64,000 bases of DNA, taken from positions 1 through 64,000 of IMG/VR virus record IMGVR_UViG_3300035137_000026; one strand, given 5' to 3'. Each line of letters begins with the position of its first letter. Positions within the stretch are counted from its first letter, which is position 1. Below the pieces are notes generated by a model. The model did no database searches. It saw nothing but the letters and a program-made list of their open reading frames with translations, and was not told where the DNA came from. This DNA comes from a virus. Shown in pieces: positions 1-39,162 of this stretch. The position numbers and the translations under genes were made by a program.

Positions 1-16
1 ATTCATACACTGTCTT

Positions 17-692
17 CTAATGTAAATCGTCTACAAAACCACGCTTATATTTATCAAACTTCATCTTATTATTTGTACGGTGGTCTTTAACCTGATTATC
101 GAAGACACGTATGGTTCTAATCTTATCGCCCCTCATACCAGAACCAATCTGTCCTTTTCTCTTCTTGTTTTCCTTGTTTTGAAGCTCAGCTTCTTTGGCC
201 TCAAGTAGTTTTGCTTTTAGAAGAGAAAGTGCTGATTCTTTATTCTGATGCTGGCTTCTTTCTGATTCACAGCGAACAATTATGTCCCCATATTTTATTT
301 GGACGGCTGAATCAGTGACGTTTCGATGTTGTCCACCCGTACCTGATCCCCTGCATTTGGAGATCTCTAGCCTGCTGTGGTCTAATAATATTTCAGTGTT
401 AGTAGGTTCTCTTAGAACTGCAATTGTGATGGTGGATGTATGGCGCCGGCCTCGTCGTTCGGTGGGAGGTATACGCTGCCATCTATGTCCTCCAGCTTCA
501 TGTCTAAAGGCATCGTAGGCATCCTTACCTGTTACTTGAAAGCATATAAAACCCGGACGGGTCTCGAGAAGTAGGAGGCTAAAGCCCCCTCCGGTAACAG
601 TACCTAGAGTAGATAGCTAGCTGATCGTTGACGAGGAGCTTAGCATCCTCTCCACCTTCAGCTGCACGTAGTTCTACAATAATGTTAGACAT
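17..692 (-). CDS. Peptide chain release factor, RF1-like (lacks N-terminal domain 1), expressed through a programmed +1 frameshift; about 224 aa
   Basis: ORF0 692-579 reads MSNIIVELRAAEGGEDAKLLV...RRGL*. The +1 frame continues ...EAGGHRWQRIPPTERRGRRHTSTITIAV...SGTGGQHRNVTDSAV...ERSQHQNK...GSGMRGDKIRT...DHR to TAG at 19-17. PxT and GGQ motifs present; length 676 nt = 3n+1. Confidence 0.9.
578..592 (-). promoter_or_regulatory. +1 ribosomal frameshift signal GGAGG-GGG-CTT-TAG-C
   Basis: Internal SD-like GGAGG, 3-nt spacer, slippery CTT-T, stop codon, then C. Same layout as prfB CTT-TGA-C but with TAG. Confidence 0.82.
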
Positions 693-705
693 AATGTCCT
701 CCTTG

Positions 706-779
706 AGCCGGCGGCTGGATTCGAACCAGCGACCTGATGCTTACGAGGCAACTGCTCTAGCCTACTGAGCTACACCGGC
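706..779 (-). tRNA. tRNA-Thr(CGT)
   Basis: Cloverleaf GCCGGTG/CGCCGGC, loop CTCGTAA, T-loop TTCGAAT; no encoded CCA. Confidence 0.9.
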
Positions 780-795
780 CTAACAAGCTACTATT

Positions 796-2235
796 TTACT
801 TGTATATATCAGAGATATCAACAGTATCGTTTCTTGTGGCCATGTCGTATAGTATATCTATATTAGTGTGGCCAAACTCTATCTGGTAGTTGTATGCTTT
901 CTCAAGGATCGGACCAAACTTCACCCCAGGTTTCATGCCCCGCTCAATTAGGTGTCGTACCATAAGGATGGGCTTGATCTCTGAAGCTGGGCTGCCTAGT
1001 TCTCTATGGACTTCCATCGTTTTGATAAAGACTGGGTCCTCTTTGCCAAGTCTCTCTGCCTTTCTACCACGTCCATCACCGTCAGCAATAGAAACATAAG
1101 CAAGAATATTAAGAGGGCATACATTCTGCAGCCGTCTCCATGTAGCCCTTCGGGGACTGCTCTTCAATAATAGCCGGGGCCTCATGTGTACCTTGACTAT
1201 GGCACACACCTTATTTATTAGGTCCTGGTTTGTAGTTAGCCGCTTCATGAAGGCTCGAGCTAAAGGCTCGCCTTCCTTGTCGTGGTTAATGCTGGTAAGA
1301 TGGCCCTTCTCCTTATCGAATCTGGTGGCCACAGCCTTACCTACATCATGTAGGAGCATACCCCACATGAATGGTAGCCTCCACTCCTCAGGCAACTCAT
1401 CTCTGTATCTAGCAGCCTTGTCTACTACCATGAGGGTGTGAACCCAGGCATCGCCTTCAGGATGCCACTTCTCCCACTGCTTGCAGCCAATTAGGGTTTC
1501 TAGCTCGGGAAATAGTCTTATCATGCAGGGGTTGTCGTATATGTCCTCAGACTCTGTTCTGCCCATCTGCTTGAGGCCAATAGATGGCTGGTCTGCTAGC
1601 ATGAGGAGCTTGTTCATCTCACCTAGGATTACGTCTCCTGTGAGATGCTTTAGGCTCTCATGCATGCTACAGACTAGCCGGTGCAGTCCAATAGTCCAAG
1701 ACCTAGCCTTACGTGCCACTAGTTGGACAGCTCTGAATGCTCTGAGTGGGTCCTCTGTGAAGGTGGTTTTGTCTACTGGGTGTAACTTGCCAAAACGTAG
1801 GTTGTCCATTCCATCGAAGGGGTCAAGGAATATACCAGTCTCAATGTCATAAGAGATAGCATTGATCGTAAAGTCTCTTCGTCTGGCAGCCTCTTTGACT
1901 GACATATCAGGGACTAGCTCAATGTCAAAGTCTTTATGCTTAGGGCCTGTATGGTTGTCCCAGCGGGGCACAGAAAGCTCAATGTCTATGCCGTTGTGTA
2001 CAACCTTCACGACTCCAAACTTCTGACCGATGAGGTCTGCCTTACCGGCGATCTCTTCGGCTGATTCCAGAAGTTTTTGGTAGCTTAGGCCGAATACCTC
2101 AAGGTCCCAGTCCTTGATATCTCTGCCCTGGATGAGGTCTACCACGCCTCCACCTACTAGGTAGGCCTTCCCGCCTTGGTCTCTGATATCATAGACTAGG
2201 CTGAATACTTCCTCTGGTATATTATAAGCCGTCAT
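796..2235 (-). CDS. cca: CCA-adding tRNA nucleotidyltransferase with HD phosphatase domain
   Basis: YLVGGGVVD, DWDLEV, RRDFTINA, EDPLR, H...LLHDVGK, HD motifs; start MTAYN overlaps the upstream stop (ATGA). Confidence 0.92.
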   Translation of the reverse strand: MTAYNIPEEVFSLVYDIRDQGGKAYLVGGGVVDLIQGRDIKDWDLEVFGLSYQKLLESAEEIAGKADLIGQKFGVVKVVHNGIDIELSVPRWDNHTGPKHKDFDIELVPDMSVKEAARRRDFTINAISYDIETGIFLDPFDGMDNLRFGKLHPVDKTTFTEDPLRAFRAVQLVARKARSWTIGLHRLVCSMHESLKHLTGDVILGEMNKLLMLADQPSIGLKQMGRTESEDIYDNPCMIRLFPELETLIGCKQWEKWHPEGDAWVHTLMVVDKAARYRDELPEEWRLPFMWGMLLHDVGKAVATRFDKEKGHLTSINHDKEGEPLARAFMKRLTTNQDLINKVCAIVKVHMRPRLLLKSSPRRATWRRLQNVCPLNILAYVSIADGDGRGRKAERLGKEDPVFIKTMEVHRELGSPASEIKPILMVRHLIERGMKPGVKFGPILEKAYNYQIEFGHTNIDILYDMATRNDTVDISDIYK

Positions 2236-2468
2236 GTCCTCAGCTGGCTTCCGATAGCCTCGGTAACCTGGTTTACCTTGCGAGCATCTCCCCAAACAGT
2301 GACGGTAAATACGGTCATAATCAGGAAGTTGTCTTCCTTATACTCAATCTTGAGTATATTGGGGGATCTCTTAGGCTCATCTAGCCAGCTGTCCAGCATT
2401 TGCTTGGCCTTCTTGGCGGCCCAGATTGGCACGGTAAATTGGGTTTCTTTTCCTACTGGTGACTTCAT
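2232..2468 (-). CDS. hypothetical protein
   Basis: ORF translationally coupled to its neighbours. Confidence 0.6.
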   Translation of the reverse strand: MKSPVGKETQFTVPIWAAKKAKQMLDSWLDEPKRSPNILKIEYKEDNFLIMTVFTVTVWGDARKVNQVTEAIGSQLRT

Positions 2469-2698
2469 TTTAACTGGTCCTCAACTGCTGAGCAGGGGAC
2501 TCTACTCATTCCTATACCACTCTGGCTTACATTGGCAGTCTTTCTGCTTGCAACTATGGCAAAGCATAGACCTGTTCTGTGGTCCTGAGTGTAAGTAATC
2601 TTGCTGGCAAAGCTGGCAGCTTCTTCTTTGCCGAATTTGCTGGGGTTTATATCGCAGCTGGCTAAAAGTAATGTAGCTATTAGTAATACTTTCTTCAT
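2465..2698 (-). CDS. putative lipoprotein
   Basis: N-terminal MKKVLLIATLLLASC lipobox. Confidence 0.6.
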   Translation of the reverse strand: MKKVLLIATLLLASCDINPSKFGKEEAASFASKITYTQDHRTGLCFAIVASRKTANVSQSGIGMSRVPCSAVEDQLK

Positions 2699-3180
2699 TA
2701 TCCTCGCTCCATTGCAATGTTGTAGTTTTGGAATGCTGGGTCGTAGGTGACCTCTGCCTCTATGGGCAACCCTAGGCAGTTAGGATCGAAGGCTAGTGCT
2801 TGCTCCACAGAAGTGAACTCTATCTCTAGTAGCTCGATGTCAAGGCCATGGAAGTGATCCAGGTCAAACTTTAATCCGTCCTTAATCCAGGACGTCCTGC
2901 GTTTCCGGATTCCTCGAGACTCGTTGTGTTCAGCGATCTTATTGAATACCCATTCGGGGACTTCTGCTTTCCATTCGTGGCGAGAGAACTTACTCCTGGT
3001 GGCAGCCTTAAGGTTTACCATGAAGGTAGTTCTTACGCCGGGGATAGTGTCACGGCGCACACGGATGCTATTAGGGAGATAATACTGGATTATCTCGTGG
3101 TGATCGGGGCAGATGCCAAGCTCCTTGAGCTTGTGGCGGTCGATCTCCCATTTGAGTACAAACTTCCTTTCGATTTTCAT
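2698..3180 (-). CDS. CYTH-domain protein (triphosphatase/adenylate cyclase-like)
   Basis: IERKF start, IRVRR, FDLDHF, LLEIEF motifs. Confidence 0.8.
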   Translation of the reverse strand: MKIERKFVLKWEIDRHKLKELGICPDHHEIIQYYLPNSIRVRRDTIPGVRTTFMVNLKAATRSKFSRHEWKAEVPEWVFNKIAEHNESRGIRKRRTSWIKDGLKFDLDHFHGLDIELLEIEFTSVEQALAFDPNCLGLPIEAEVTYDPAFQNYNIAMERG

Positions 3181-3193
3181 ACTGTTCTCCTAG

Positions 3194-3280
3194 AGGAGGA
3201 GGAGAGATTCGAACTCTCGGGCCGGTTTCCCGACCACTCCCTTAGCAAGAGAGCACCTTAAACCACTCGGTCACTCCTTC
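3194..3280 (-). tRNA. tRNA-Ser(GCT)
   Basis: Long variable arm, loop TTGCTAA; A2-C71 mismatch, T discriminator. Confidence 0.85.
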
Positions 3281-3458
3281 AAATTTCCTTCCTTATCTGT
3301 TACAATCAGGAAGAGATTGTGTACCACAACTAGTGACCAAATGATGAAGTTGAATACTAACTTACTCTTTATAGCCTTTGGGTCTGCCTACTTGCAGAGA
3401 GTACAACAATAGTAGCCGCCAAGTATAAAGAATATTACACACAAACTGATGAGGATTA

Positions 3459-4013
3459 TCATAGATTACCTCGTAGCATCATGGTGTGAACATATGGATC
3501 CTTGCAAGCCAACATAATCTTACGGTTCACCCAGGCTGCATACTCCTTCTTCTCGTGGTTATTGCCGTCGCCCTTGGCTGTCTGTTGCTTATCCCTGCTA
3601 TAGATCCTTACTGCATATAAATGCAGTTGTGTGCATGAGGCTTTCATTGGATTGACTACACCTAGGAACCGGAACCTGTCTTCGGGGATGTTATATCCTC
3701 CTTCTTCCAGCAGCTCCATCTTAGCATGGTACCTAGGCTTACCAGTCTCACATGCTCCTGTGATGACAGATGCCTGGTGTAGCAAGTCCGTCATATGTGC
3801 TGGATTCAGCTCGAATCTTGACAGAAACTCTGGCTTAAAGGCAACGGGCATACCTGCTGCCTGCTCTGTCTCATGATCCCTCCTGAGACGGTAGGGTAAG
3901 ACAGCTACGGCCAGGTTATCCTTGGACTGCGATGGCTCACTAGCGTGGAACCATCCGTTAAGCTCTACGATTCTAAGCCAGCCTGTATCATGTAGGACTT
4001 TACGCTTTGGCAT
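3459..4013 (-). CDS. Nudix hydrolase (ADP-ribose pyrophosphatase-like)
   Basis: AVAVLPY and variant Nudix box GACETGKPRYHAKMELLEEGGY; probable start MPKRK. Confidence 0.7.
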   Translation of the reverse strand: MPKRKVLHDTGWLRIVELNGWFHASEPSQSKDNLAVAVLPYRLRRDHETEQAAGMPVAFKPEFLSRFELNPAHMTDLLHQASVITGACETGKPRYHAKMELLEEGGYNIPEDRFRFLGVVNPMKASCTQLHLYAVRIYSRDKQQTAKGDGNNHEKKEYAAWVNRKIMLACKDPYVHTMMLRGNL

Positions 4014-4425
4014 TGCAAACTGCCTCTCTGATGTCTGGATGTACCTGCCAGTCGGGCCAACCATTTCTCTTAAGTGCTCGTTGGATCCCGAGTGCTGTCT
4101 TAAGGTGCCGTGGGCTTCTCCAGTAGCAGTAGCTGCCTTGGTTCCCACGGGTGGGCTTGATTGTAACGGGCTCGTGCCCGTTATGGAACTGTGTAGCGGT
4201 AATGTCCACTATCCTGCCCTGGCACTTGATGTAGGCATGATTATTCGTGAGACAGTACGTTGGCTGTAGGCCAGCCCGCTCTAGCCTTTTGAACAACTCA
4301 TATGAGGCAAGCCCACACATTCCGGCAAGGGTCTCGCTGAACCCCATCCGGTGCTTTAGTCTGTATTTTTCAGCCCACTTTCTGGTATTGTCGGCAATAC
4401 GTTTTACTCTAAAGACTGGATCCAT
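4000..4425 (-). CDS. hypothetical protein, possible papain/transglutaminase-like fold
   Basis: GMCGLAS...HAY...IVDITATQF suggests a Cys-His-Asp triad. Confidence 0.4.
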   Translation of the reverse strand: MDPVFRVKRIADNTRKWAEKYRLKHRMGFSETLAGMCGLASYELFKRLERAGLQPTYCLTNNHAYIKCQGRIVDITATQFHNGHEPVTIKPTRGNQGSYCYWRSPRHLKTALGIQRALKRNGWPDWQVHPDIREAVCNAKA

Positions 4426-4444
4426 TACTTGTCCTTTACTTTAG

Positions 4445-4515
4445 CGGGGTAAATGAGAATCGAACTCGCCTTTCTGGATCGACAGTCCGGGGCCTTCCCA
4501 GATGACTACTACCTC
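4445..4515 (-). tRNA. tRNA-Asp(GTC), degenerate
   Basis: Loop CTGTCGA, G73; A-C mismatches in acceptor, anticodon and T stems. Confidence 0.75.
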
Positions 4516-4706
4516 ATACGGGCTAGTTCTCTTAATAATGCTGCTAGGTACTCCCTGCTTCTACTATCAGTTGGGATGATTGGCTGCTCAAAGTAGTTTG
4601 CAGCCTCGACTTCATGTGCTAGCTCCTTGGCAGCCTCCTCTATTGTTTTGTGTTTGGAGGCCCACAGGTTAAGTATACTCTCAATTTTAGTCTTGGATGG
4701 TGCCAA
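4509..4706 (-). CDS. hypothetical protein
   Basis: ORF track, co-oriented. Confidence 0.5.
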   Translation of the reverse strand: MAPSKTKIESILNLWASKHKTIEEAAKELAHEVEAANYFEQPIIPTDSRSREYLAALLRELARMR

Positions 4707-4898
4707 TGTACAAGCTCCCTAGATATCGGCGGCTGAGATTTCCCTGCATGTCTCGTATATCCAGTGCTTGGTCTCGTCTTCAGCAAGTTCCTCTGAAGCT
4801 GAGTCCAGTCCATATGTCACCGGGCATAGCTCGGAGTCTTCTACCCCACACCATTCACACTTCTTCCTTAGCATTGTTGTCCCCTTACTTCTATTCTG

Positions 4899-4970
4899 CT
4901 AAGGTAGGTGGATTTGAACCACCGATGCCGGATTCAGAGTCCGGTGCTCTGTCATGTGAGCTACGGCCCA
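4899..4970 (-). tRNA. tRNA-Gln(CTG) with poorly paired acceptor stem
   Basis: Perfect D, anticodon (CCGGA-CTCTGAA-TCCGG) and T arms; acceptor TGGGCCG/TACCTTA is mismatched. Confidence 0.75.
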
Positions 4971-5251
4971 ATAAACTCTTTCCTAAACCTGTTTATAGCA
5001 TCAATCTGTTTTTGATGCTCGGCTACCCACCCGTCTAGCATTTCATTTGTAACTAGCTGGCAATATGGAATGTCACATTCACTCTTGCCTCTACGCCTTT
5101 TCATGTTGCTTGTGCAAATCTGCTCAAGGACGGTAAGTCCGTTACTGGATAGGCCTGGTATAGTGTCTATCTTAGTAATACGGTGAAGGCCAGCCTTGTA
5201 CCCGGTTACGATGTCTCCGACCTGGAGGTCCTTGTAGTGTTTCATTCCCAA
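4961..5251 (-). CDS. hypothetical protein
   Basis: ORF track. Confidence 0.55.
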   Translation of the reverse strand: MGMKHYKDLQVGDIVTGYKAGLHRITKIDTIPGLSSNGLTVLEQICTSNMKRRRGKSECDIPYCQLVTNEMLDGWVAEHQKQIDAINRFRKEFIGP

Positions 5252-5478
5252 GCCTTAATCCTCTCTCTAAGCTTCTTGGATATGACAAACCATCGCCAGC
5301 CACTTAAAATATTACTCTGCTTTACTGCGGTACGGAGCGACTCTACCATATTCTCATGGTTGTGGGTGAATTTAGCACCTTCATCCACAAGAGCCCACGT
5401 CTCTGGCTGGGTAAGATACCTACCGAAGTGCTCATGGTGACGACTTACGGAGAGCCGATTGGAGTGTGCTTGCTACCG

Positions 5479-5847
5479 TTATGCCTTGGTATACATAGCA
5501 TGGATGTTCTTAAAGCTGGCGGTCCAGCTCCACTCATCTTGGATGAGATTTCTGAACTCTGTTTCTGTAAGGCCTATCTCTTCCTTAATCTCCCACTCAA
5601 ACATCTTGATATACCTGTCATAGTCATCCAGGTTATGGGCCGGGCGGTTGATCCTAACGTCTAACTCGAACTCTTCATCCTGTGGAGTTATTGTCAGCCT
5701 GGTAAGGTTTTCTTGCAGCTTGTCTATCATTGCTGACTTATAGCCTCCCAGTGCTTCGAGGTACTCTCTCTCATGGGCAGCACGGTTCTCTCTAAGAGCC
5801 TCAAGTAGCTTGTCCTTCTTAACCATAATTATTCTCTCGTTATACAT
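5479..5847 (-). CDS. hypothetical protein
   Basis: ORF track, coupled to the upstream gene. Confidence 0.65.
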   Translation of the reverse strand: MYNERIIMVKKDKLLEALRENRAAHEREYLEALGGYKSAMIDKLQENLTRLTITPQDEEFELDVRINRPAHNLDDYDRYIKMFEWEIKEEIGLTETEFRNLIQDEWSWTASFKNIHAMYTKA

Positions 5848-6082
5848 GGTGTTGTTCCTTCCCTAATGCCTTAAGTATACGTCCTATTGACTTCATAGAC
5901 ATAATGAATGTTGTTGCTTGCATGTTTGTACCTTTCTTGGATAACTGCTCAGCATCTCGTACAAAGTTAATAAACTTTATGAATGTAGAGTTGTCGCCGC
6001 CACCAAACGTGTCCAGTATCCGAACTAATGCGTCAGTAAGAGCGGCGTCTTCCATCTCTATGAACCTAGTATCAGAGTTCAT
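5840..6082 (-). CDS. hypothetical protein
   Basis: ORF track. Confidence 0.55.
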   Translation of the reverse strand: MNSDTRFIEMEDAALTDALVRILDTFGGGDNSTFIKFINFVRDAEQLSKKGTNMQATTFIMSMKSIGRILKALGKEQHHV

Positions 6083-6807
6083 TTAATGCCTGCTGATCGC
6101 ATAATATTGTGCTGCTCAGTAGTGCTCAGTGTCTTATAAGTGGCAGAGAGTGCTACATGAGCGAGTTCATGATAAGTCAGGCTGAGCGTGCGGCTCTCGC
6201 CTAGTATTGGGTTGAGTGATCCCCATTCCCATTCTATCTCACACCATTGGCTACGGGTAATACCTCTGCATCGTTGAACTATGTTGTGCCACACCCGCTT
6301 GATCGTGCCGGGTCTACAGAATGTTACGAACGTGATTGGCTGCCATGCTCCTCTTGATACTACAATCCCTTGCTTAAGTAGTGAGTTCCTGATCGAGTCA
6401 GTAACTGCAGTTGGTGGACACAAGAGCATACGCATCCAATGCTCAGCTGCTTGGGAGAGTGGAATTCTATCAAACCGGATTGCAATAGGAGCTTGGAACC
6501 ATACTACCTTGCGGAGCACTGTGCACCGCTGCCATAACTGTATGCCGCACCCAGCAAAGCAGATTATGGCAAGAGTAGAGGTAGTAACTAGGGAGATGGC
6601 TATGCCGGTATCTGTGTTCTGTGATGCATTGATTCCGATAAGCACAGCCAATACTATGGCTGTCAAGCCGGGAAGTATCCAGCCAAGGAAGCCCCACCGC
6701 CAGATCGGATAACGTTTACGTACTAAATCCTGGGCATGTGAGCGTGAGTCTGGCATGGATCTGCTCCTGGTGTGGTTTAATGATCCTGGCGGGATTTGAG
6801 CCCGCAA
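6079..6807 (-). CDS. hypothetical membrane protein
   Basis: Two hydrophobic segments near the N-terminus; start uncertain. Confidence 0.55.
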   Translation of the reverse strand: MRAQIPPGSLNHTRSRSMPDSRSHAQDLVRKRYPIWRWGFLGWILPGLTAIVLAVLIGINASQNTDTGIAISLVTTSTLAIICFAGCGIQLWQRCTVLRKVVWFQAPIAIRFDRIPLSQAAEHWMRMLLCPPTAVTDSIRNSLLKQGIVVSRGAWQPITFVTFCRPGTIKRVWHNIVQRCRGITRSQWCEIEWEWGSLNPILGESRTLSLTYHELAHVALSATYKTLSTTEQHNIMRSAGIK

Positions 6808-6826
6808 TTACAAGATTGAAAGCACT
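6781..6826 (-). pseudogene. tRNA 3'-half remnant (TTC loop)
   Basis: CTTTCAA..GCGGG-CTCAAAT-CCCGC-CAGGATC-A; no matching D arm or 5' acceptor strand. Confidence 0.45.
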
Positions 6827-6916
6827 GGTCTATTTTGCGTGGATTCCATGACGAAGGAGCTAGTCAGAGGCTAATCCAAAAGCATGTCTCCTATGCATAT
6901 GGCAGACTTTTTGTAT

Positions 6917-7345
6917 CTAGTACAGCCCTGGCTTCGACTGCATACTGCTTTCAGTGACCCGTGGGAGAATTAAACTCCCGCCTTCAGCATGAAGATTACC
7001 GTGAACTTCTCTGTGACAACTAGAACATAGTAGTATACATTTATCTAACTCTTTTCTTAACTTATCCATAAACTTGTATCGTCTAAATTTAGCAAAGTTA
7101 AAGTCCTTCTGTGTGGGATCTTTATGATGAAAGTCTAGTGCACCTGAGTATTTATCATATCCACATAGCTTGCAGCTTCTACCAAGGTATTCAATACACT
7201 GTTCCTTTAGCTTTCTGCGCCGTTCTGTTATGGCTAGGTTCTGGCAGTCTTTGCAGTAGGAGGCTTGCTCCTTACCTCTCTTGCCATTTCTATAATAGAA
7301 ATCCGATAATGGCTTAGTCTTTTTGCATCTTCCACATTGTTTCAT
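6917..7345 (-). CDS. HNH homing endonuclease
   Basis: CxxC...CxxC, CKLCGY, LDFHHKDP, CILLCSSCHREVH; C-terminus reads through a tRNA 3' half. Confidence 0.9.
   Translation of the reverse strand: MKQCGRCKKTKPLSDFYYRNGKRGKEQASYCKDCQNLAITERRRKLKEQCIEYLGRSCKLCGYDKYSGALDFHHKDPTQKDFNFAKFRRYKFMDKLRKELDKCILLCSSCHREVHGNLHAEGGSLILPRVTESSMQSKPGLY
6955..6994 (-). pseudogene. tRNA 3' half (Glu-like) inside the HNH C-terminus
   Basis: CTTCAT-GCTGA-AGGC-GGGAG-TTTAATT-CTCCC-ACGGGTC-A. Confidence 0.55.
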
Positions 7346-7369
7346 CTACTAAGTACATAATATCTTAGT

Positions 7370-7407
7370 GTTGAAATCAAGTGGCTTAGCCATTAGCCCA
7401 CGGGGCC
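7370..7407 (-). pseudogene. tRNA 5' half upstream of HNH
   Basis: GGCCCCG-TG-GGCTAATGGCTAAGCC-A-CTTGA-TTTCAAC, then loss of pairing. Confidence 0.6.
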
Positions 7408-7613
7408 ATTATCTTATTTAGTGCGATTTGCTATCTCTAATCTAATTTTCTTCTCTACTCCGTAGACAATATATATGTCGCCTATCTCTGGGATCTCTAC
7501 TTCATTAAGCCATTGAGTTACTTCTTCTTCTGTATTTTTAATGGTGGTCTCATGTTCGTTCATATCGAAGATAAAATACTTCTTTTCCATGACTGTCCTT
7601 CTGTATGGATTTG

Positions 7614-7686
7614 TGGCACCGACTGGAGTTGAACCAGTTACGCCCGCATTTTCAGTGCGGCGCTCTACCAGTTGAGCTACGGTGCC
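7614..7686 (-). tRNA. tRNA-Phe(GAA)
   Basis: Canonical cloverleaf, loop CTGAAAA. Confidence 0.95.
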
Positions 7687-8103
7687 AGGAAAGAACCATC
7701 ACGGCTTTCAGGTTCTTATGCTTCTTATTCTCACTAGCATTTTTGTGAGCTGTCCGAACGATTGCTAATCGTAGAAGCTAAAGAGAGTACTGGGTCATAG
7801 GTTATGTGAATGTCTTCTCTTGGGTGCGGCCGAAACCTACCAAGAGCGAGTGATACAACCAGATCTAGATTCCCACCTGTAAAACTATCCAGATCCCTTT
7901 CGTCTCTTGTCGGCTTGGGTGGGCTTAAACCACCAATCTCAGATTTTATCATACAATCATCGCAAAGATCAAGTACTTTTGTGCTATCTGCCACGGGAAT
8001 TCCGAGTTGGTCAAGGAGATCTTGCTTGAGTGTTATTGCTGCACTTTTCTTAGAGCTAGTACCAGAGGAACCGAATACTCTACCGCACAGATCGCAAGAA
8101 ATT

Positions 8104-8442
8104 TCAATCCTTGCTGGTATATTCTTTCTTGTCATCTTCTACCTCTTCAATCCCTAGTTCTTGTACGCTCAGGGCCTTGCGGCGAATCATCTCGAGGAAC
8201 TCCCCTGTCCTGCTCTGCTTTGCCACCCGAGCGCCCCGCGCCACGGCTAGTTTCTGGCGCTTCTGGAGCTTCCGGCCAGCCTCGAGGGTCACCTGGAAGC
8301 TCTTCTTGGCCTCATCTATATCAACACCCAGCTCGGCGAGCTTGGTGCGTACTTCCTCATCGCTTCCGTCGCTGATGTCGTTCAAATCAGCGAACATGCG
8401 CTCCAAAAAGGTCTTCTCCTTGTCTCGCGTAATCTTGCTCAT
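8104..8442 (-). CDS. hypothetical protein in a GC-rich patch
   Basis: ORF track; DEEVRTKLAELGVD helix. Confidence 0.55.
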   Translation of the reverse strand: MSKITRDKEKTFLERMFADLNDISDGSDEEVRTKLAELGVDIDEAKKSFQVTLEAGRKLQKRQKLAVARGARVAKQSRTGEFLEMIRRKALSVQELGIEEVEDDKKEYTSKD

Positions 8443-8693
8443 GCATCCCCTCCTATTGCCTCGTAGACCGCGTTCAGCAGGTCTGTAGGCAGATTACGCA
8501 GTATCGTCTCCAGTCTTTTTCGTGCTGCTCTATGTTGAGTCCTGGTGAGCCCCGTTGCGCTCAAGATGTCCCCTCGCTTTTCGTGTCCGTCCATATACGC
8601 CAACAACATCGACTCAACCTCTTCATCGTTCTTCTGGGTTGATTTTAGCATTGCATTTATAGCAAGACAAGAAACCATTAGAGGAGTAATCAA
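8439..8693 (-). CDS. C-terminal HTH fragment resembling sigma-factor region 4
   Basis: LLAYMDG.EKRGDILSATGLTRTQHRAARKRL resembles sigma r4 HTH; N-terminal part absent. Confidence 0.35.
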   Translation of the reverse strand: MITPLMVSCLAINAMLKSTQKNDEEVESMLLAYMDGHEKRGDILSATGLTRTQHRAARKRLETILRNLPTDLLNAVYEAIGGDA

Positions 8694-9604
8694 TGTTAGG
8701 ATTCCATTCGTGGAGTTTTACTATAATTCCTCCACACTTAGGATAGTATGACTCTTTTATATTTCCATCACTGTCTTGTATCTTAATTGTACCATCTAGT
8801 TATATATCATCTGGTGCCCACTTTTCTGGAACGTTAAAGACAGGATGTTTCTTGGCATTACCTAGAGCCATCTCAAGTGCTTTTATTATAGGGCTAGGTT
8901 CCTCGTGTCCACTGAAAGTTATTGGACATGAAGACATCGCCCAGGCCTGGATTGGTTCACTCGGGGTTGCGACCTCAAGCATCGGAGCGATTTCGCTCGG
9001 TGCCTCGGACCTGCAACCCCTTCCCGGTCAGATCTGACCGGGTGGATTGGAAAGAGCATGAAGCATCTCTGCTCGTGATTTTGGCTTGGGAGCAGCGCAG
9101 CGACTCAGGATGCGTTTCCATCCATTTCTGGCTTCCACTGCTTCGCCGAGGATATTCACCAGTTCGTCGTGGTCCACGCGGTCATCGGATTTGGGTACGT
9201 GATTCTCGGCATACTGGGCGTGGAGTCGTTTGCGGTCGGCGGGGCATTTAGATTGCTCCAGAATTCGGCCTTAGGCTTCACAGGCGTAGGCGAACTCCTC
9301 TCTTAGACTATAGAGAGTATATATCTTACCATTCTGCTCTATCTCTTCTTGTACTATACGATAGTTCCAGGTCATTGGTGTTCCACGCATTTCTTGGGGT
9401 GTCCGTTCTCGTCAAAGACTGGTGCCATACCCATATAGCCACGTTGTTGTCTCCATGATGTATAGGCAGAGACAATATATTCATGGCCTTCTATGCAAAC
9501 TATACCTATTGCATCTGGATCAGCAAGCACCTCTTCACTAAGTTTGTCTTTACTGGTTTTGCATCCTAATGTAATAGCAAGAAGGAGTATTAATAAATAT
9601 TGTA

Positions 9605-10726
9605 TTACATATCTTCCTCAAGGCGGAATCCAAGACCAACTGGGAACTCTGGAATTCCGTCCTTGCTTAGGCTTTGATACTTTACTGTAATCATCTTGCC
9701 CATGTGTTCTTCTGCTGTCTCGAACCACTTTCTCTTCTGTTGGAGTGTGCCCTTCGGGACTACGTCCACTGTCTGGTCTTCTCCTACCCTACAGACCCAG
9801 ATTACACAGTTCTCGAACTTACCTTCACCATCCTTAAACCCTATGATTTCATACTCAGCGTCCTGGAAGTCCTTGTACTTAAGTAGTGCCCTAGATCTAT
9901 TAGCTAGCTCATATGTTCCTTCGGGTAGGCGGATGATGGTCCCCTCGAATCCATTCTGCGTTGTACCAGAGTGGAACATCTCAAAGTCTTTGTAACTTAA
10001 GAGTGAGGTGGTGATGACCGATCTGAGTATGGTGCCATCTACATTAAGATGTGCAAGATGCTGGACTCTCTCCTGGAATGGCTGATCTAGCTTGTCGAGC
10101 ATGAATGTATCGTAGATCCAGAATTCTAGATCTTTGCTACAGTATCCTGTGTCTTCATATTCTTCTTTTCTGTGTTTCTTGACCAGGGCGTTGATGTCCT
10201 GTCTCATTAGCCTATGGATGTAGATCTCGCCGTCTAGTACTTGGCCTGGCAGGAGGACTGCCTCTAGTGCTTCAGATAGGTGGGCTACGTGGTATTCTTT
10301 GCCGCCTCGAGAGAGAAGCTGAACCTTGTCTCCATTCCAGCGGGCTAGACAACGTATCCCATCTAGCTTTGGTTGGGCATACACATGGCCATCCAGCATA
10401 TGCTCCCGCTTTGCTCTTGCCATCTTTGTCATGTCATGTGCTAGCATTGGGAGGAAGACTAGTTCATTCTCTGCCTCTTGGATGGACTCGAAGTATCCCT
10501 TGTCCTTCTTCTTGGTCCACATTGACTGGGCTGTCAGCTTAGCCTGCTCTTCAGGTGTAGTCTCATTCTTTTTTCCGATGCTTTTGCCTTTAGCAGTCTT
10601 GCTACTGGTCTGCATCTTGCCGTCTACTTTGCCATGTTCAGTAATGATTTCAGCGTCTTCGGTACGGAGCGACCACTGCTGGAAGCTGCCGTTCTTGTTC
10701 TTCTTATAGAGTGTAGGAAACTGCAT
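9605..10726 (-). CDS. lig: ATP-dependent DNA ligase with WGR-like N-terminus
   Basis: QPKLDGIRC, LDGEIY, EGTIIR, LLKYK, C-terminal OB fold (ITVKYQ...PEFP). Confidence 0.92.
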   Translation of the reverse strand: MQFPTLYKKNKNGSFQQWSLRTEDAEIITEHGKVDGKMQTSSKTAKGKSIGKKNETTPEEQAKLTAQSMWTKKKDKGYFESIQEAENELVFLPMLAHDMTKMARAKREHMLDGHVYAQPKLDGIRCLARWNGDKVQLLSRGGKEYHVAHLSEALEAVLLPGQVLDGEIYIHRLMRQDINALVKKHRKEEYEDTGYCSKDLEFWIYDTFMLDKLDQPFQERVQHLAHLNVDGTILRSVITTSLLSYKDFEMFHSGTTQNGFEGTIIRLPEGTYELANRSRALLKYKDFQDAEYEIIGFKDGEGKFENCVIWVCRVGEDQTVDVVPKGTLQQKRKWFETAEEHMGKMITVKYQSLSKDGIPEFPVGLGFRLEEDM

Positions 10727-11494
10727 TTATATCTCCTCAGTATGGACTATAGCGCCTCGTCTGTGCTCTGTTAGATAGCCTGGCTGATTGGACACTAGCT
10801 TAGTTTTGCTTAGCTCATGGGTCGCTGTCACATGGTCATGCCCGTATATCCATAACTTAGGACCATGGTCAATTACTAAGTTAGAAAGGTCAGAGTGGAA
10901 ACCATACTTTATACGGCTATACCTGTAGTGCGGTGAGCATGTTATAGATGACGGGCTGTGATGCGTGACTACTACGGTTTTGCCCTCGAACGGTTTCTTC
11001 AGCTCTTCCTCGAGCCAGTCACGACAGGCCTCAAATTCTGCATGGTAGTCTGTGTGGTTAAAGGTAACCAAGATTGGCCTCTTCTTCCTCATGGGCAAGC
11101 CTTTTACTCTTATCTTAACAAAGTCGTTAAGGCCATGCTGCACAGACATTGCATGCATAGGATTAGATAGGTCTGACCATAGTGTAGTACCTAGAAATCT
11201 GACCCCATCTATTATATGGGACTGCCTCTCTAGCAGTACAGCATCTGGCACTTTGGCTACCTGATTTCTATAATTCTCCCTTATGTCTGGAAATGTGTGC
11301 CCATAGTATTCATGGTTCCCCATGACATAGATGAACTTGGCCTTGCTACTAGCTCGAAGACAGAGTAGATAGCTTTTCAGAAGCTTAGGACACACATGAA
11401 TGTCGCCGGCTAGTATAAGAACGTCCACATCTGGAACTGGAATGATGTCGTCACACATCTCACAGTGTAAGTCACTTATATATCCTACTAGCAT
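10727..11494 (-). CDS. calcineurin-like metallophosphoesterase
   Basis: SDLH, LAGDI, GNHEYY, VVVTHH, WIYGHDH. Confidence 0.9.
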   Translation of the reverse strand: MLVGYISDLHCEMCDDIIPVPDVDVLILAGDIHVCPKLLKSYLLCLRASSKAKFIYVMGNHEYYGHTFPDIRENYRNQVAKVPDAVLLERQSHIIDGVRFLGTTLWSDLSNPMHAMSVQHGLNDFVKIRVKGLPMRKKRPILVTFNHTDYHAEFEACRDWLEEELKKPFEGKTVVVTHHSPSSITCSPHYRYSRIKYGFHSDLSNLVIDHGPKLWIYGHDHVTATHELSKTKLVSNQPGYLTEHRRGAIVHTEEI

Positions 11495-11629
11495 CCTGTC
11501 TCTCCTTCTTAAGGTACTCGGTGGCTTTGACTGGAGGATTACTACAGCTTTCACAGTACCAGTTGAACTGGTATCCGTCGAATTCTCCATGGAATGTGTT
11601 GCCGCTACATTTGAGGCATTCTGCGTTGC

Positions 11630-11830
11630 TCATACTTTGTGTTCCCGTAACTGGGTCTCTAATTCGGCTGCCCGTCGCCGGAGTTGACTTCCCTCAGACT
11701 TGTAAACCCGGCGGCCACATTCTATGCAGTAGTAAAGTCCAACAGCTGGTTCGCCGAGTTCGACGATCTTACAGCAGTCAGGACACCAACCAGTCCGTGG
11801 TGGCAATGTTTCTGTTTTGGTAGTGTTCAT
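11630..11830 (-). CDS. small Zn-finger protein
   Basis: CPDC...CIEC. Confidence 0.5.
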   Translation of the reverse strand: MNTTKTETLPPRTGWCPDCCKIVELGEPAVGLYYCIECGRRVYKSEGSQLRRRAAELETQLREHKV

Positions 11831-12198
11831 GCGATCTCCTTGACTAATGGGATATTCTTAAGCTCTTCTTTGATCCAACTCAGCTGTTGCTTGTGCCATG
11901 ACTCGTTCTTATTAGTAAGCGATACTTCACGCTCTATCTCTTCTATCCACTCTCGTTTTTGCTGTCTTCTCTGTGCTCTTAGCTGTGCTTGGATGGGTCT
12001 TTTGTAGTGCAGTCTCTTAGCAGGCTTAGGATGAGGAGTAATATTGCCGCTGCCGTCGATATAGTATAGCTCAGCCAACTGCTTGGCTATATCATCTTCG
12101 GCTTGCATGTATCTAGTCTTATTTTTGGGAGCCCACCTCATCTTGTGGGGTTTGCATATTTTGCAGCTACGCTTCTTAGTTTTATATATCTTGCCCAC
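11827..12198 (-). CDS. hypothetical basic protein
   Basis: ORF track; CKICKPHK motif. Confidence 0.5.
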   Translation of the reverse strand: MGKIYKTKKRSCKICKPHKMRWAPKNKTRYMQAEDDIAKQLAELYYIDGSGNITPHPKPAKRLHYKRPIQAQLRAQRRQQKREWIEEIEREVSLTNKNESWHKQQLSWIKEELKNIPLVKEIA

Positions 12199-12289
12199 TA
12201 TGGAGGTGCCTCCGAAAGTAATGTCTTGGGCTTATTATATCATCAAGTAGGATCAGAGGACCTTGATAGTACTAAGAGCCCAGGACCGG

Positions 12290-12374
12290 GAGCGGGATAT
12301 GGAGTCGAACCATCGCAATGTGTTAGACGTCTCCAGCTTATGAGACTGGCATGTTACCATTATACTATCTCGCT
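12290..12374 (-). tRNA. tRNA-Met(CAT) with long variable region
   Basis: Loop CTCATAA; 18-nt variable region; A5-C68 mismatch. Confidence 0.75.
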
Positions 12375-12376
12375 AG

Positions 12377-12449
12377 TACCAGGGGATGGATTCGAACCAT
12401 CGTATAGAGGTTTATGAGACCACTGCGTTAGCCTCTTCGCCACCCTGGC
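12377..12449 (-). tRNA. tRNA(CAT), Met or Ile2
   Basis: Cloverleaf GCCAGGG/CCCTGGT, loop CTCATAA. Confidence 0.85.
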
Positions 12450-13070
12450 TCAGCTGTTGATTATCTTCTCTGCTTCTCCTGCTGAGTATCTAGCCTTGAC
12501 TTGTGTTACCCATGCAGCAGTCTTTGCCTTAGCCATTACTAGTTTGTGCCTTGAACCTGCTTTGGCCACTATGCCTTCGAAGCTGGCACCTTCTAGTCTA
12601 CCCTCCCAGACCTGTTTTATTAACCCAGGATCATAATTCATAATACCTAAGTAATTAGGTACACCACCATACTGACGGAATAGTTGTAGGAATTCTGCTG
12701 GGCCTAAAATACCTTGTCTATGGGGTGCTACATCGATAAGGGTGAGATACTTCTCATCCTCTGGCTCGTGTAAGCCAGCAAACGAGTGCTTGCCCCAAAA
12801 CTCAAAGAAGCAGGTAGCCTCCTCATACTTCTGCTTTTGGAGTATCTTACTGATCTCCTTAAACCGGAGGTCTTGTGTCTTCATGACGGTAAAGACTTCA
12901 TGAAACACTGGGTCTGTGTGGTCCAAGAGCCTTCTGCGGGTGCCGAACTTATGTCACCCATTCTTCTTGGACCACTCCATTCTGATGTTGGAGCTATCTA
13001 TCTTCTTAAAGATGTGTGCCTTGAAATACGGTGCTCTGCCTGCTCCAGGTATGCTTGGGTATGACTTCAT
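12450..13070 (-). pseudogene. RNA-ligase-like nucleotidyltransferase interrupted by in-frame TGA (12954-12956)
   Basis: MKSYPSI...FKKIDSSNIRMEWSKKNG*HKFGTR...FEFWGKHSFAG...FEGIVAK; KxDG motif reads KIDS. Confidence 0.7.
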
Positions 13071-13072
13071 TT

Positions 13073-13678
13073 CTAAACCTTAATGTACATGTTTGGTACT
13101 TCATCTACAAGCCAGACACCATTTTCTGAGAGATAAAATCTATACCCGTTTTGTACCATTGGCAAGGTATTAATTTTTAGGACTACCGTTTGTCCTCCAT
13201 GCCGGCGACCAACCTCTTGTGCTGTCTCGAGGTCTGCTGATAGGTGAACATGGTGTCTCTTCATCTTGTTGAGGCCACCAGTCATCTTTATCTGCTTGAA
13301 TCTCTCCGCTGTTGTACCATGATATAGTACTGGAGGTGGCATCTTGTCCTCAAAGGTCATACCAACATCAATACTATGTCCTTGATTCGCACGAATCTTC
13401 CTCTTGTCATCATTATAGGAGAACCGTTGCTTGTTATTCTTTTCTACTACACGATCTAAATCGTTATGTGAGATGGCTAGGCCATACTTGGATAGTTGGT
13501 TGAGTAGTGTTTCCACATCTGCCCAGCCACCCTTCTCTAAAGTTATTCCTATCTTCTCAGGCTTGTGGCGTAGGAGAAGAGAGAGAAACTTACTTGTCCT
13601 TTTATCCTTATGAAACTGCTCAGACTTAACTTGCTTCTCATGTCTGTAGCGCTTCATATATTCTTCATTCAGATCCAT
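13073..13678 (-). CDS. kptA: RNA 2'-phosphotransferase (Tpt1/KptA)
   Basis: SKFLSLLLRH, KQRF, IRANQGHS, LYHGT, RHHVHLS, SENGVWL. Confidence 0.95.
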   Translation of the reverse strand: MDLNEEYMKRYRHEKQVKSEQFHKDKRTSKFLSLLLRHKPEKIGITLEKGGWADVETLLNQLSKYGLAISHNDLDRVVEKNNKQRFSYNDDKRKIRANQGHSIDVGMTFEDKMPPPVLYHGTTAERFKQIKMTGGLNKMKRHHVHLSADLETAQEVGRRHGGQTVVLKINTLPMVQNGYRFYLSENGVWLVDEVPNMYIKV

Positions 13679-37782: not shown

Positions 37783-39162
37783 TTATTTTGCTTTCATATT
37801 CATGATTGGTTTTATCTGCTCAACCAGCCCGACTGTTGGAATAATAGCTTGCTGGATCTCTTCTGGGTTTTTGTATGCTTCCGGCGCTTCATCCAGTGGG
37901 ATGGCTGAGGTATAGATGCCGTTCATTGCTTTCTCGGCATCTTCTTGCTTTAGTATCTGCTTAGCTTTGGTGCGGCTCATAGCTCTACCAGCACCATGCG
38001 GAGCCGAGAAGTTCCAGGACTTTTCTGCCCATCCTGTACAGATCCAAGTACCGTCCTTCATATTGAACGGAATGATGACTTTCTCTCTGTAGGCAGCAAC
38101 GGCCCCCTTTCGGATTATGAGGTCCTTTGGGCTAATGTAGTTATGTACTGTCTCTACCTGCTCAAGTATTGATCTGCTAACCCTTTCGGTTGCAAGAAGT
38201 CTTGGTCTTAGCCTGTTCTGAACTGCTGGCTTAGGAACAATGTTGCTCAGGACATCCTGCATAATGGCAGCTCTGTTATGGGTAGCATAGCACTGGGCAA
38301 ATGCCATGTCGTATAAATAGTCATACATAGCCTTGCCCATAAGTGGTTCCAAGCCCTTCTGGCTAATGCCGCTAGTGATTCCAAGCTGTGCTCGTAGCTC
38401 TTGGATCTTCCTCTGGGTGTCTTTGGGTGATGTAGTCTTCTTGATTTGCTCAATCTGCTGCTGGTAGTTACCTTCCGTTGACTGCTTCTGCATTGCGGCG
38501 GCGAGTCTTTGGTGGTATTCGCAGACATTTTTGCCTAGCTGTCTTGAGCCGCTATGAACTATTACCCATAGAAGATCTTCGTTGGTTGATGAGATCCCTA
38601 TCTCGATGAAGTGATTCCCACCACCAAGAGTGCCAATTCCATTGAGTGCTCTTTGGAAGTCCTGTCCTATCTTGGCGCAAAGTGCTTGAAACCAAGTATG
38701 GTTGATCCTAGGTGGTTTTGGAGTGCTTGTACCAAACTTTTCACGCAACCTAATCCACAGTTGGTCCAAGCTTGATTGTGCCTCGGTGTAGAACTTGTGA
38801 CCGTCTTCGAGAGCATAGGTTCCGGTTGTATGATAATGTACTTCGAAACCGAATGGGATTCTGTCTCTGATTTGTTTATCTAGAGCGGCTAGATCCATGC
38901 CCTTCGGCTTCTGTATCTGGATACCGAGCATTCCACAGCCGATATCTACTCCAACCACGTTGGGGATAACCATCTCTGTCAGTGGCATAGTGAATCCAAT
39001 TACGGATCCTTTGCCAGTGTGGCAGTCTGGCATAATTCTGACTGGCTCAGTGAATGCCGGGTGGTTAAGCATGGTATAGATCTGACTAATACACTCTTGC
39101 TCTACATTCTCTTGCTTGGCAAAAATAATTGCCTTTGAGTATCGTCCCTGGATCTCGAACAT
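37783..39162 (-). CDS. rtcB: RtcB RNA ligase
   Basis: MPDCHTG, GVDIGCG, GTLGGGNHFIE, HSGSR, HNY, RKGA, PHGAGR, DEAPEAYK. Confidence 0.95.
   Translation of the reverse strand: MFEIQGRYSKAIIFAKQENVEQECISQIYTMLNHPAFTEPVRIMPDCHTGKGSVIGFTMPLTEMVIPNVVGVDIGCGMLGIQIQKPKGMDLAALDKQIRDRIPFGFEVHYHTTGTYALEDGHKFYTEAQSSLDQLWIRLREKFGTSTPKPPRINHTWFQALCAKIGQDFQRALNGIGTLGGGNHFIEIGISSTNEDLLWVIVHSGSRQLGKNVCEYHQRLAAAMQKQSTEGNYQQQIEQIKKTTSPKDTQRKIQELRAQLGITSGISQKGLEPLMGKAMYDYLYDMAFAQCYATHNRAAIMQDVLSNIVPKPAVQNRLRPRLLATERVSRSILEQVETVHNYISPKDLIIRKGAVAAYREKVIIPFNMKDGTWICTGWAEKSWNFSAPHGAGRAMSRTKAKQILKQEDAEKAMNGIYTSAIPLDEAPEAYKNPEEIQQAIIPTVGLVEQIKPIMNMKAK

Follow-up and report, generated by a model that had tools for sequence, protein, structure and literature searches.

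The gene at the left edge of the DNA examined here (the window, a 64-kb stretch of a wetland phage record) probably codes for a class-I release factor of a third kind, an RF1-type protein without domain 1 that would be made through a UAG-responsive programmed +1 frameshift. Judged by sequence comparison, it belongs to an undescribed family of release-factor paralogues carrying a variant of the prfB-type recoding signal. The prfB frameshift is a textbook case of translational autoregulation, and to our knowledge such a switch is known in bacteria for RF2 only. Craigen and Caskey reportedly showed in 1986 that the prfB cassette works by such a +1 shift, and Curran and Yarus are said to have used amber versions of the prfB site experimentally in 1988. 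A preliminary description of this DNA had noted that no RF1 frameshift was described; our search of the literature likewise found no published frameshifted release factor that was RF1-type or from a phage. Newly examined here is whether the identity of the stop follows phylogeny, decoding residues or stop usage. Also new are a rooted tree on which the frameshift is a derived trait, the presence of the gene together with the classic prfB cassette in the same genomes, and a fold comparison with PrfH.

Gene structure and proposed mechanism

The gene lies on the minus strand at 692..17, and its parts, unless otherwise indicated, were read from the sequence of that strand. The ATG start codon (692..690) stands 5 nt downstream of a ribosome-binding site, AAGGAGG (704..698), which is adjoined by the 3' end of a tRNA-Thr(CGU) gene predicted by ARAGORN (705..779, minus strand). 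The frame-0 segment (579..692) consists of the ATG and 36 further codons followed by TAG; it matches positions 100-134 of the PCRF profile, and its product includes the alpha5-tip motif AEGGEDAK as well as helix alpha5 of release-factor domain 2. These 37 codons close with CGG AGG GGG CTT TAG C, which contains the frameshift cassette GGAGG-GGG-CTT-TAG-C (578..592), with the same geometry as in 166 relatives. Its elements are an internal Shine-Dalgarno-like GGAGG (592..588), a GGG spacer (587..585), CTT as the P-site shift codon (584..582), the frame-0 stop TAG (581..579) and the C after the stop (578).

The +1-frame segment comprises 187 codons (20..580), from AGC at 580..578 to a last codon at 22..20, and is followed by the final stop of the full-length product, TAG (17..19). 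The frame is already open upstream of the site. The segment encodes what remains of domain 2, including QRIPPTE, then domain 3 with its GGQ and domain 4 with the switch loop, and a C-terminal tail reading GSGMRGDKIRT...DHR. With the site read as one four-base step, the joined protein (P0001) is 224 aa long. No ATG, GTG or TTG occurs in the +1 frame between 614 and 137, and this frame is therefore not initiable separately. The preliminary description had reported a 37-codon ORF ending in a prfB-style gate of Shine-Dalgarno sequence, three-base spacer, CUU, stop and C, and a +1 frame with the three motifs named above; every one of these elements is present exactly as it stated.

The terminal repeat of the phage record (window 1-108; record G000 197623-197730) covers the 3' end of the gene, and past the record junction tRNA-Asn, tRNA-Pro and tRNA-His genes are found 3' of it. 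Because tRNAs flank it on both sides across this junction, the release-factor gene sits inside an array of 21 phage tRNAs.

The arrangement of these elements suggests how the gate would operate. A ribosome in frame 0 would arrive at CUU-UAG-C with peptidyl-tRNA-Leu on CUU, GGAGG three bases upstream would pair with the anti-Shine-Dalgarno sequence of 16S rRNA, and UAG-C would be decoded slowly. If a UAG-reading factor acted first, a 37-residue peptide would be released; if none came in time, the tRNA would re-pair on UUU and translation would run through ...RRGL-SLLLLETR... to yield the 224-residue factor. Output would rise when UAG termination capacity was short and fall when host RF1, and probably also the phage factor, was plentiful, so that amber and ochre termination capacity would be kept adequate during infection without over-production of the factor. 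We infer both the slip itself and its response to RF1, and likewise the release activity of the factor.

Conservation of the frameshift cassette

Relatives were gathered as DNA from viral contigs, bacterial and archaeal genomes and metagenome contigs, the frames of the N- and C-terminal parts of each relative were compared by tblastn, and identical genes were removed. The +1 split fell at the same codon in 166 non-redundant relatives from the three collections. The last frame-0 sense codon was CTT in every one of them, followed at the same codon by T plus a stop, again in all 166. This stop was TGA in 112 genes, TAG in 51 and TAA in 3, and the base after it was C in 126, G in 33, A in 4 and T in 3. 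An exact GGAGG stood 3 nt upstream in 90 relatives, and 113 had it with at most one mismatch. Conservation of SD-NNN-CTT-TAG in homologues, which had been proposed as a check, thus held throughout for CTT and in many genes for GGAGG, but TAG was kept in fewer than a third. The nearest relatives (L222, L224, L225, L240, P0002 and P0003) all retain CTT TAG C, the amber sites of P0002 and P0003 being deduced from called +1-frame proteins and from the metagenome contigs. Relatives that are in frame read R-x-G-(L/F/W)-(D/E) at the site, spelled with other codons and without GGAGG.

Each half of the gene is conserved as protein in its own frame among relatives 36-57% identical, and residues 11-18, the AEGGEDAK of the frame-0 part, are invariant in 17 relatives. 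It is hardly credible, then, that the gene is broken, that a homopolymer (GGGGG or TTT) was misassembled, or that TAG is read as an amino acid, even though the site does contain short homopolymers, the removal of one T gives the same protein in frame, and an in-frame TGA, probably decoded as Trp, is found in some relatives. The run from which the record probably derives has also been assembled by Logan, and that assembly gives an identical stretch, without an indel, at a k-mer depth of 43; this is weak and not independent support, as it comes from the same sample. That run was the only one in which the locus was located, and no RNA run contained it. Taken together, the preservation of CTT-T-stop at the exact codon in 166 independent genes, the conservation of both halves and the second assembly exclude an indel artefact or a pseudogene. 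As for recoding, reading TAG as sense would leave the ribosome in frame 0, which past the TAG is junk without release-factor sequence and reaches its next stop 17 codons on.

The phage uses the standard genetic code. Its record (197,730 bp, 46% GC) has 235 called genes, of which 106 (45%) end in TAA, 87 (~37%) in TAG and 42 (~18%) in TGA; none of the 21 phage tRNAs is a suppressor, and long ORFs merge under no stop reassignment. These three observations indicate that TAG is not sense in this phage. Stops readable by RF1 end 82% of the phage genes, and the usage is unusually TAG-rich and TGA-poor for a genome of 46% GC.

Two other arrangements were seen among the in-frame relatives. Some (L020:5001-5675, L021:5001-5678 and members of the peat-metagenome set L226-L247) have an in-frame stop at the exact shift codon, in sites such as TAT TAG ATG, CTA TGA CTG and CTC TGA ATG, which suggests that the gate exists there in a form that works by read-through or recoding. 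A low-GC phage subclade (L007, L011, L012, L014-L016, L079, L080, L085, L291, L294, L295 and L297) is in frame and has TGA for a conserved Trp at the codon immediately preceding the shift position; these are likely phages in which TGA encodes Trp, so that the release-factor gene itself would depend on TGA suppression.

An RF1-type factor without domain 1

In Pfam, the joined protein matches positions 100-194 of the 194-position PCRF profile and the RF-1 domain. Among NCBIfam models it scores highest against RF1 (217 bits), ahead of RF2 (151 bits) and PrfH (69.5 bits), with ArfB also below RF1, and all four matches fall under the equivalog cut-offs. For the RF1 models TIGR00019 and NF001859 the scores are 217 bits against a cut-off of 400 and 213 against 423, and the RF1 match covers only positions 104 to 323-333 of a 347-position profile. 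No segment encoding domain 1, and no second release-factor gene, was found anywhere in the 197,730-bp record. The earlier observation that domain 1 is missing was therefore upheld, both by the start of the Pfam match and by the search of the whole genome.

The best matches to solved structures were the RF1 proteins of Thermotoga, Thermus and E. coli. In the alignment to solved RF1, Gly13 corresponds to Gly116, Gln72 to Gln181, Pro75-Pro-Thr77 to the PxT motif and Thr85 to Thr194, and the GGQ and switch loop also align; QRIPPTE, RHTS and GGQ align to RF1 of both T. thermophilus and T. maritima. The PxT, Gln181, Thr194 and GGQ columns are invariant or nearly so across the short family. This bears out the assignment of the protein to the RF1 type in the preliminary description.

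The alpha5-tip Glu of RF1 and RF2 contacts the first base of the stop codon. The one systematic difference from RF1 in the decoding-residue alignment lies here, with Asp16 (window 645-647, minus strand) in place of the Glu and Asp in 164 of 166 family members. The third PxT residue, residue 77 in the window's protein, also varies: among 123 frameshifted relatives it is T in 78, N in 36, S in 6 and G in 3, so that Thr is replaced in 45 of these 123 members as against 1 of 43 in-frame ones (relatives L001-L179). Such replacements may alter stop-codon specificity.

A fold was predicted for P0007, an in-frame relative found in nature that is 60% identical, from an alignment of 41 relatives. The model has a pLDDT of 89.9 and superimposes on ribosome-bound RF1 with a TM of 0.89-0.92 and an rmsd of 1.8-2.4 A; RF2 is matched slightly less well, and for PrfH (9mor) the TM is 0.65.

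The absence of domain 1 is shared with PrfH, and the preliminary description had suggested a PrfH-like rescue factor working with RtcB. Such a factor would act on damaged ribosomes independently of the stop codon. The phage does encode RtcB (37792..39084) together with an RNA-repair and tRNA-maintenance set close to the release-factor gene, comprising a CCA-adding enzyme with an HD domain (796..2295), an ATP-dependent ligase (9605..10726), a metallophosphoesterase (10727..11590) and Tpt1 2'-phosphotransferase (13073..13678), and the Asp at the alpha5 tip and the variable third PxT residue of the relatives are non-canonical. We nonetheless consider a rescue role very improbable. The PrfH match is far under the cut-off of its model (TIGR03072, 166.65 bits) and well behind RF1, the modelled fold is much closer to RF1 than to PrfH, and the full RF1 decoding set is present. 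The RtcB gene lies 37 kb from the release-factor gene, no neighbouring gene recurs across 177 loci, and the copies in Myxococcota sit among unrelated housekeeping genes. A CYTH protein also belongs to the RNA-repair set at window 796-13678.

Identity of the shift-site stop

TGA is the RF2-specific stop, and an RF1-type factor should not read it. The TGA members of the family (112 of 166) keep the RF1-type decoding residues, and since TGA, which an RF1-type factor would leave unread, makes up 67% of the family, self-feedback is not its conserved rationale. The preliminary description had argued that the stop in the shift site matches the factor's own specificity and that the gene is hence a UAG-sensing feedback loop. 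For this gene and its closest relatives, in which TAG is kept, the match holds and the loop is plausible; as a general statement about the family neither part stood.

A rival account grants that the frameshift is real and proposes for it a role other than sensing the factor's own activity: it would report termination stress in general, or in most members cross-regulation by RF2 activity, or would do no more than fix a low yield, the TAG of this gene being one of two nearly interchangeable stops. We think this rather unlikely, but much of the family-wide evidence is in its favour, beginning with the distribution of stops itself. Stop identity has almost no phylogenetic signal, with at least 27 changes on the tree among 123 frameshifted rows as compared with a mean of 30.6 (range 25-34) for shuffled labels. 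The sole protein column that separates the stop classes is residue 38 (D/E from GAN, S from AGY), and it does so because the overlapping codon forces the residue; the third PxT residue is not significantly associated with the shift-site stop (p=0.085). At the bacterial loci the ratio of TGA to TAG at the site is 47:21, close to that of neighbouring genes, and TAA alone is depleted; the relation of the shift-site stop to neighbouring stop usage is a non-significant trend. The motifs of prfB are, by contrast, 98.6% TGA, with no TAG in 8,164 genomes (PMC12421855).

Stop usage in phages was sampled from ~80 kb of each of nine large phages, 40 kb of one more (G005) and the whole of the window's phage. 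The fraction TAG/(TAG+TGA) was 0.14-0.65 in six genomes of the TAG class and 0.21-0.39 in five of the TGA class, so that the relation between shift-site stop and genome stop usage across these 11 phages is a trend only (p=0.18). In one phage of the TAG class 81% of the genes end in TGA, which again suits an interchangeable stop.

Against such interchangeability, the slip necessarily competes with whatever factor reads UAG, and feedback would consequently be automatic in TAG members if their product is an active RF1-type factor. TAG is moreover stable in the window's own subclade, and no other of the 11 phages sampled has as large a share of TAG as the window's phage (TAA 45%, TAG 36-37%, TGA 18-19%). 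Because the sensed stop is one that an RF1-type factor reads, RF1-type feedback would be expected in this phage, and a UAG-responsive gate remains our preferred reading of the gene. Across the family, the gate is best understood as conserved for sensing slow termination at stops other than UAA, and a self-matching stop, as far as these comparisons indicate, is not the organising principle.

Distribution and origin of the family

The gene occurs in large phages, but to call it a phage gene, as the preliminary description did, is too narrow. Of 78 classified loci in the genome collection 70 are frameshifted, and most of the matches there come from Myxococcota chromosomes, where the neighbours are ordinary genes such as a glycosyltransferase, a DUF1569 protein and a GDSL lipase. 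Complete chromosomes that carry it include those of Archangium gephyra (CTT TAG C) and Minicystis rosea (CTT TGA C). In both genomes, and in that of a Nannocystaceae isolate, the gene is accompanied by a canonical prfA scoring above the cut-off and by a prfB bearing the classic SD-CAT-CTT-TGA-C site (L306:1476-1500, L307:1476-1500 and L308:1452-1476). With canonical prfA and prfB both present in the three genomes checked, the short factor is a third paralogue, and these high-GC genomes hold two frameshift-gated release-factor genes whose cassettes occupy non-homologous positions.

A FastTree phylogeny of 166 members (123 frameshifted) was rooted with RF1 and RF2 of the same three genomes. The short family formed one clade (support 88) whose earliest branches are in-frame genes, and all frameshifted genes fell in one nested clade of 136 (support 72) that also includes 13 in-frame genes. 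The topology suggests that the frameshift arose once, in a lineage already without domain 1, and reverted several times; support at the deep nodes is modest.

The shift site coincides with the conserved ERRG(W/F/L) motif at the end of helix alpha5 in domain 2, which as ERRG(W/F/Y) is common to all class-I factors. The codons of this motif can spell CGG AGG GGN and those of the following L-D can spell CTT GAC, and in-frame relatives read R-R-G-L-D/E at the site. One inserted T in such an in-frame motif yields the whole cassette, which argues for convergence over transfer from prfB. Of the two possibilities raised in the preliminary description, a convergent or a transplanted mechanism, the mechanism looks convergent, and transplantation is not favoured.

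A broader and more tentative proposal, to which we would give somewhat less than an even chance, is that the short RF1-type proteins form a stand-by termination system defined by a stop at one fixed codon of their mRNA, which would be bypassed by a +1 slip in the 166 frameshifted genes and apparently by read-through of an in-frame UAG or UGA in the relatives with a stop at the shift codon (L020, L021 and the peat set L226-L247). In such a system a cell would produce the factor only when its termination at the stop in question was failing, large phages could secure their own termination when host release factors are limiting or attacked, and the UAG form described here would be the first natural RF1-type autoregulatory frameshift.

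Annotation and comparison with known systems

The family is poorly visible in current annotation. PHROGs places it under 'unknown function', relatives in GenBank phages were found only as unannotated metagenomic huge-phage sequences, and database proteins with a query coverage of ~81-86% have their starts within the +1 frame. Gene callers evidently split or truncate these frameshifted genes.

The short factor resembles PrfH (RF-H) in its length of ~200-225 residues, the lack of domain 1 and the GGQ, and differs in that it keeps the stop-reading residues of RF1 and is not adjacent to RtcB. Stop-recoded phages likewise supply their own class-I release factors, with RF1 in the TGA-recoded Jade phages and RF2 in TAG-recoded Lak and Agate; the preprint reporting these makes no mention of a frameshift or a missing domain 1 (Borges et al., 10.1101/2021.08.26.457843). 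Such recoded phages are probably also the setting of the in-frame family members with TGA at positions of Trp, whereas the window's phage has a standard code and no suppressor tRNA.

With RF1 (prfA) the short factor shares the PCRF and RF-1 domains, Gly116, Gln181, PxT, Thr194, GGQ and the switch loop, and a fold with a TM of about 0.9 (P0007 model). It differs from RF1 in lacking domain 1 (~100 N-terminal residues) and scoring under the equivalog cut-offs, in having Asp for the alpha5-tip Glu and in its shorter domain 2 loops. Bacterial prfA also lacks a programmed frameshift, which a 2025 survey in mBio of more than 12,000 bacterial genomes considered unlikely or did not find in this gene (PMC12421855).

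The closest parallel is with prfB, which has the same GGAGG, 3-nt spacer, CUU in the P site and stop followed by C, the same +1 direction in a class-I release-factor gene, and the same implied logic of a slip at slow termination. The position differs, as the site of the short factor is codon 38, at the end of helix alpha5 in domain 2, and that of prfB is codon ~26, in domain 1. The short factor is of the RF1 type (PPT) where RF2 has SPF, its stop is UAG here and UGA, UAG or rarely UAA in the family where that of prfB is nearly always TGA, and the rooted tree suggests that it originated independently, within the short family. A cassette of this design would thus have had a second origin, at another position and in a paralogue of the RF1 type; in the family of that paralogue it tolerates UGA, UAG and rarely UAA and has spread through large phages and myxobacterial chromosomes. 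These genes offer natural material for asking what a sensor stop measures, whether the factor's own activity, that of another factor or termination stress, and what a release factor can do without domain 1.
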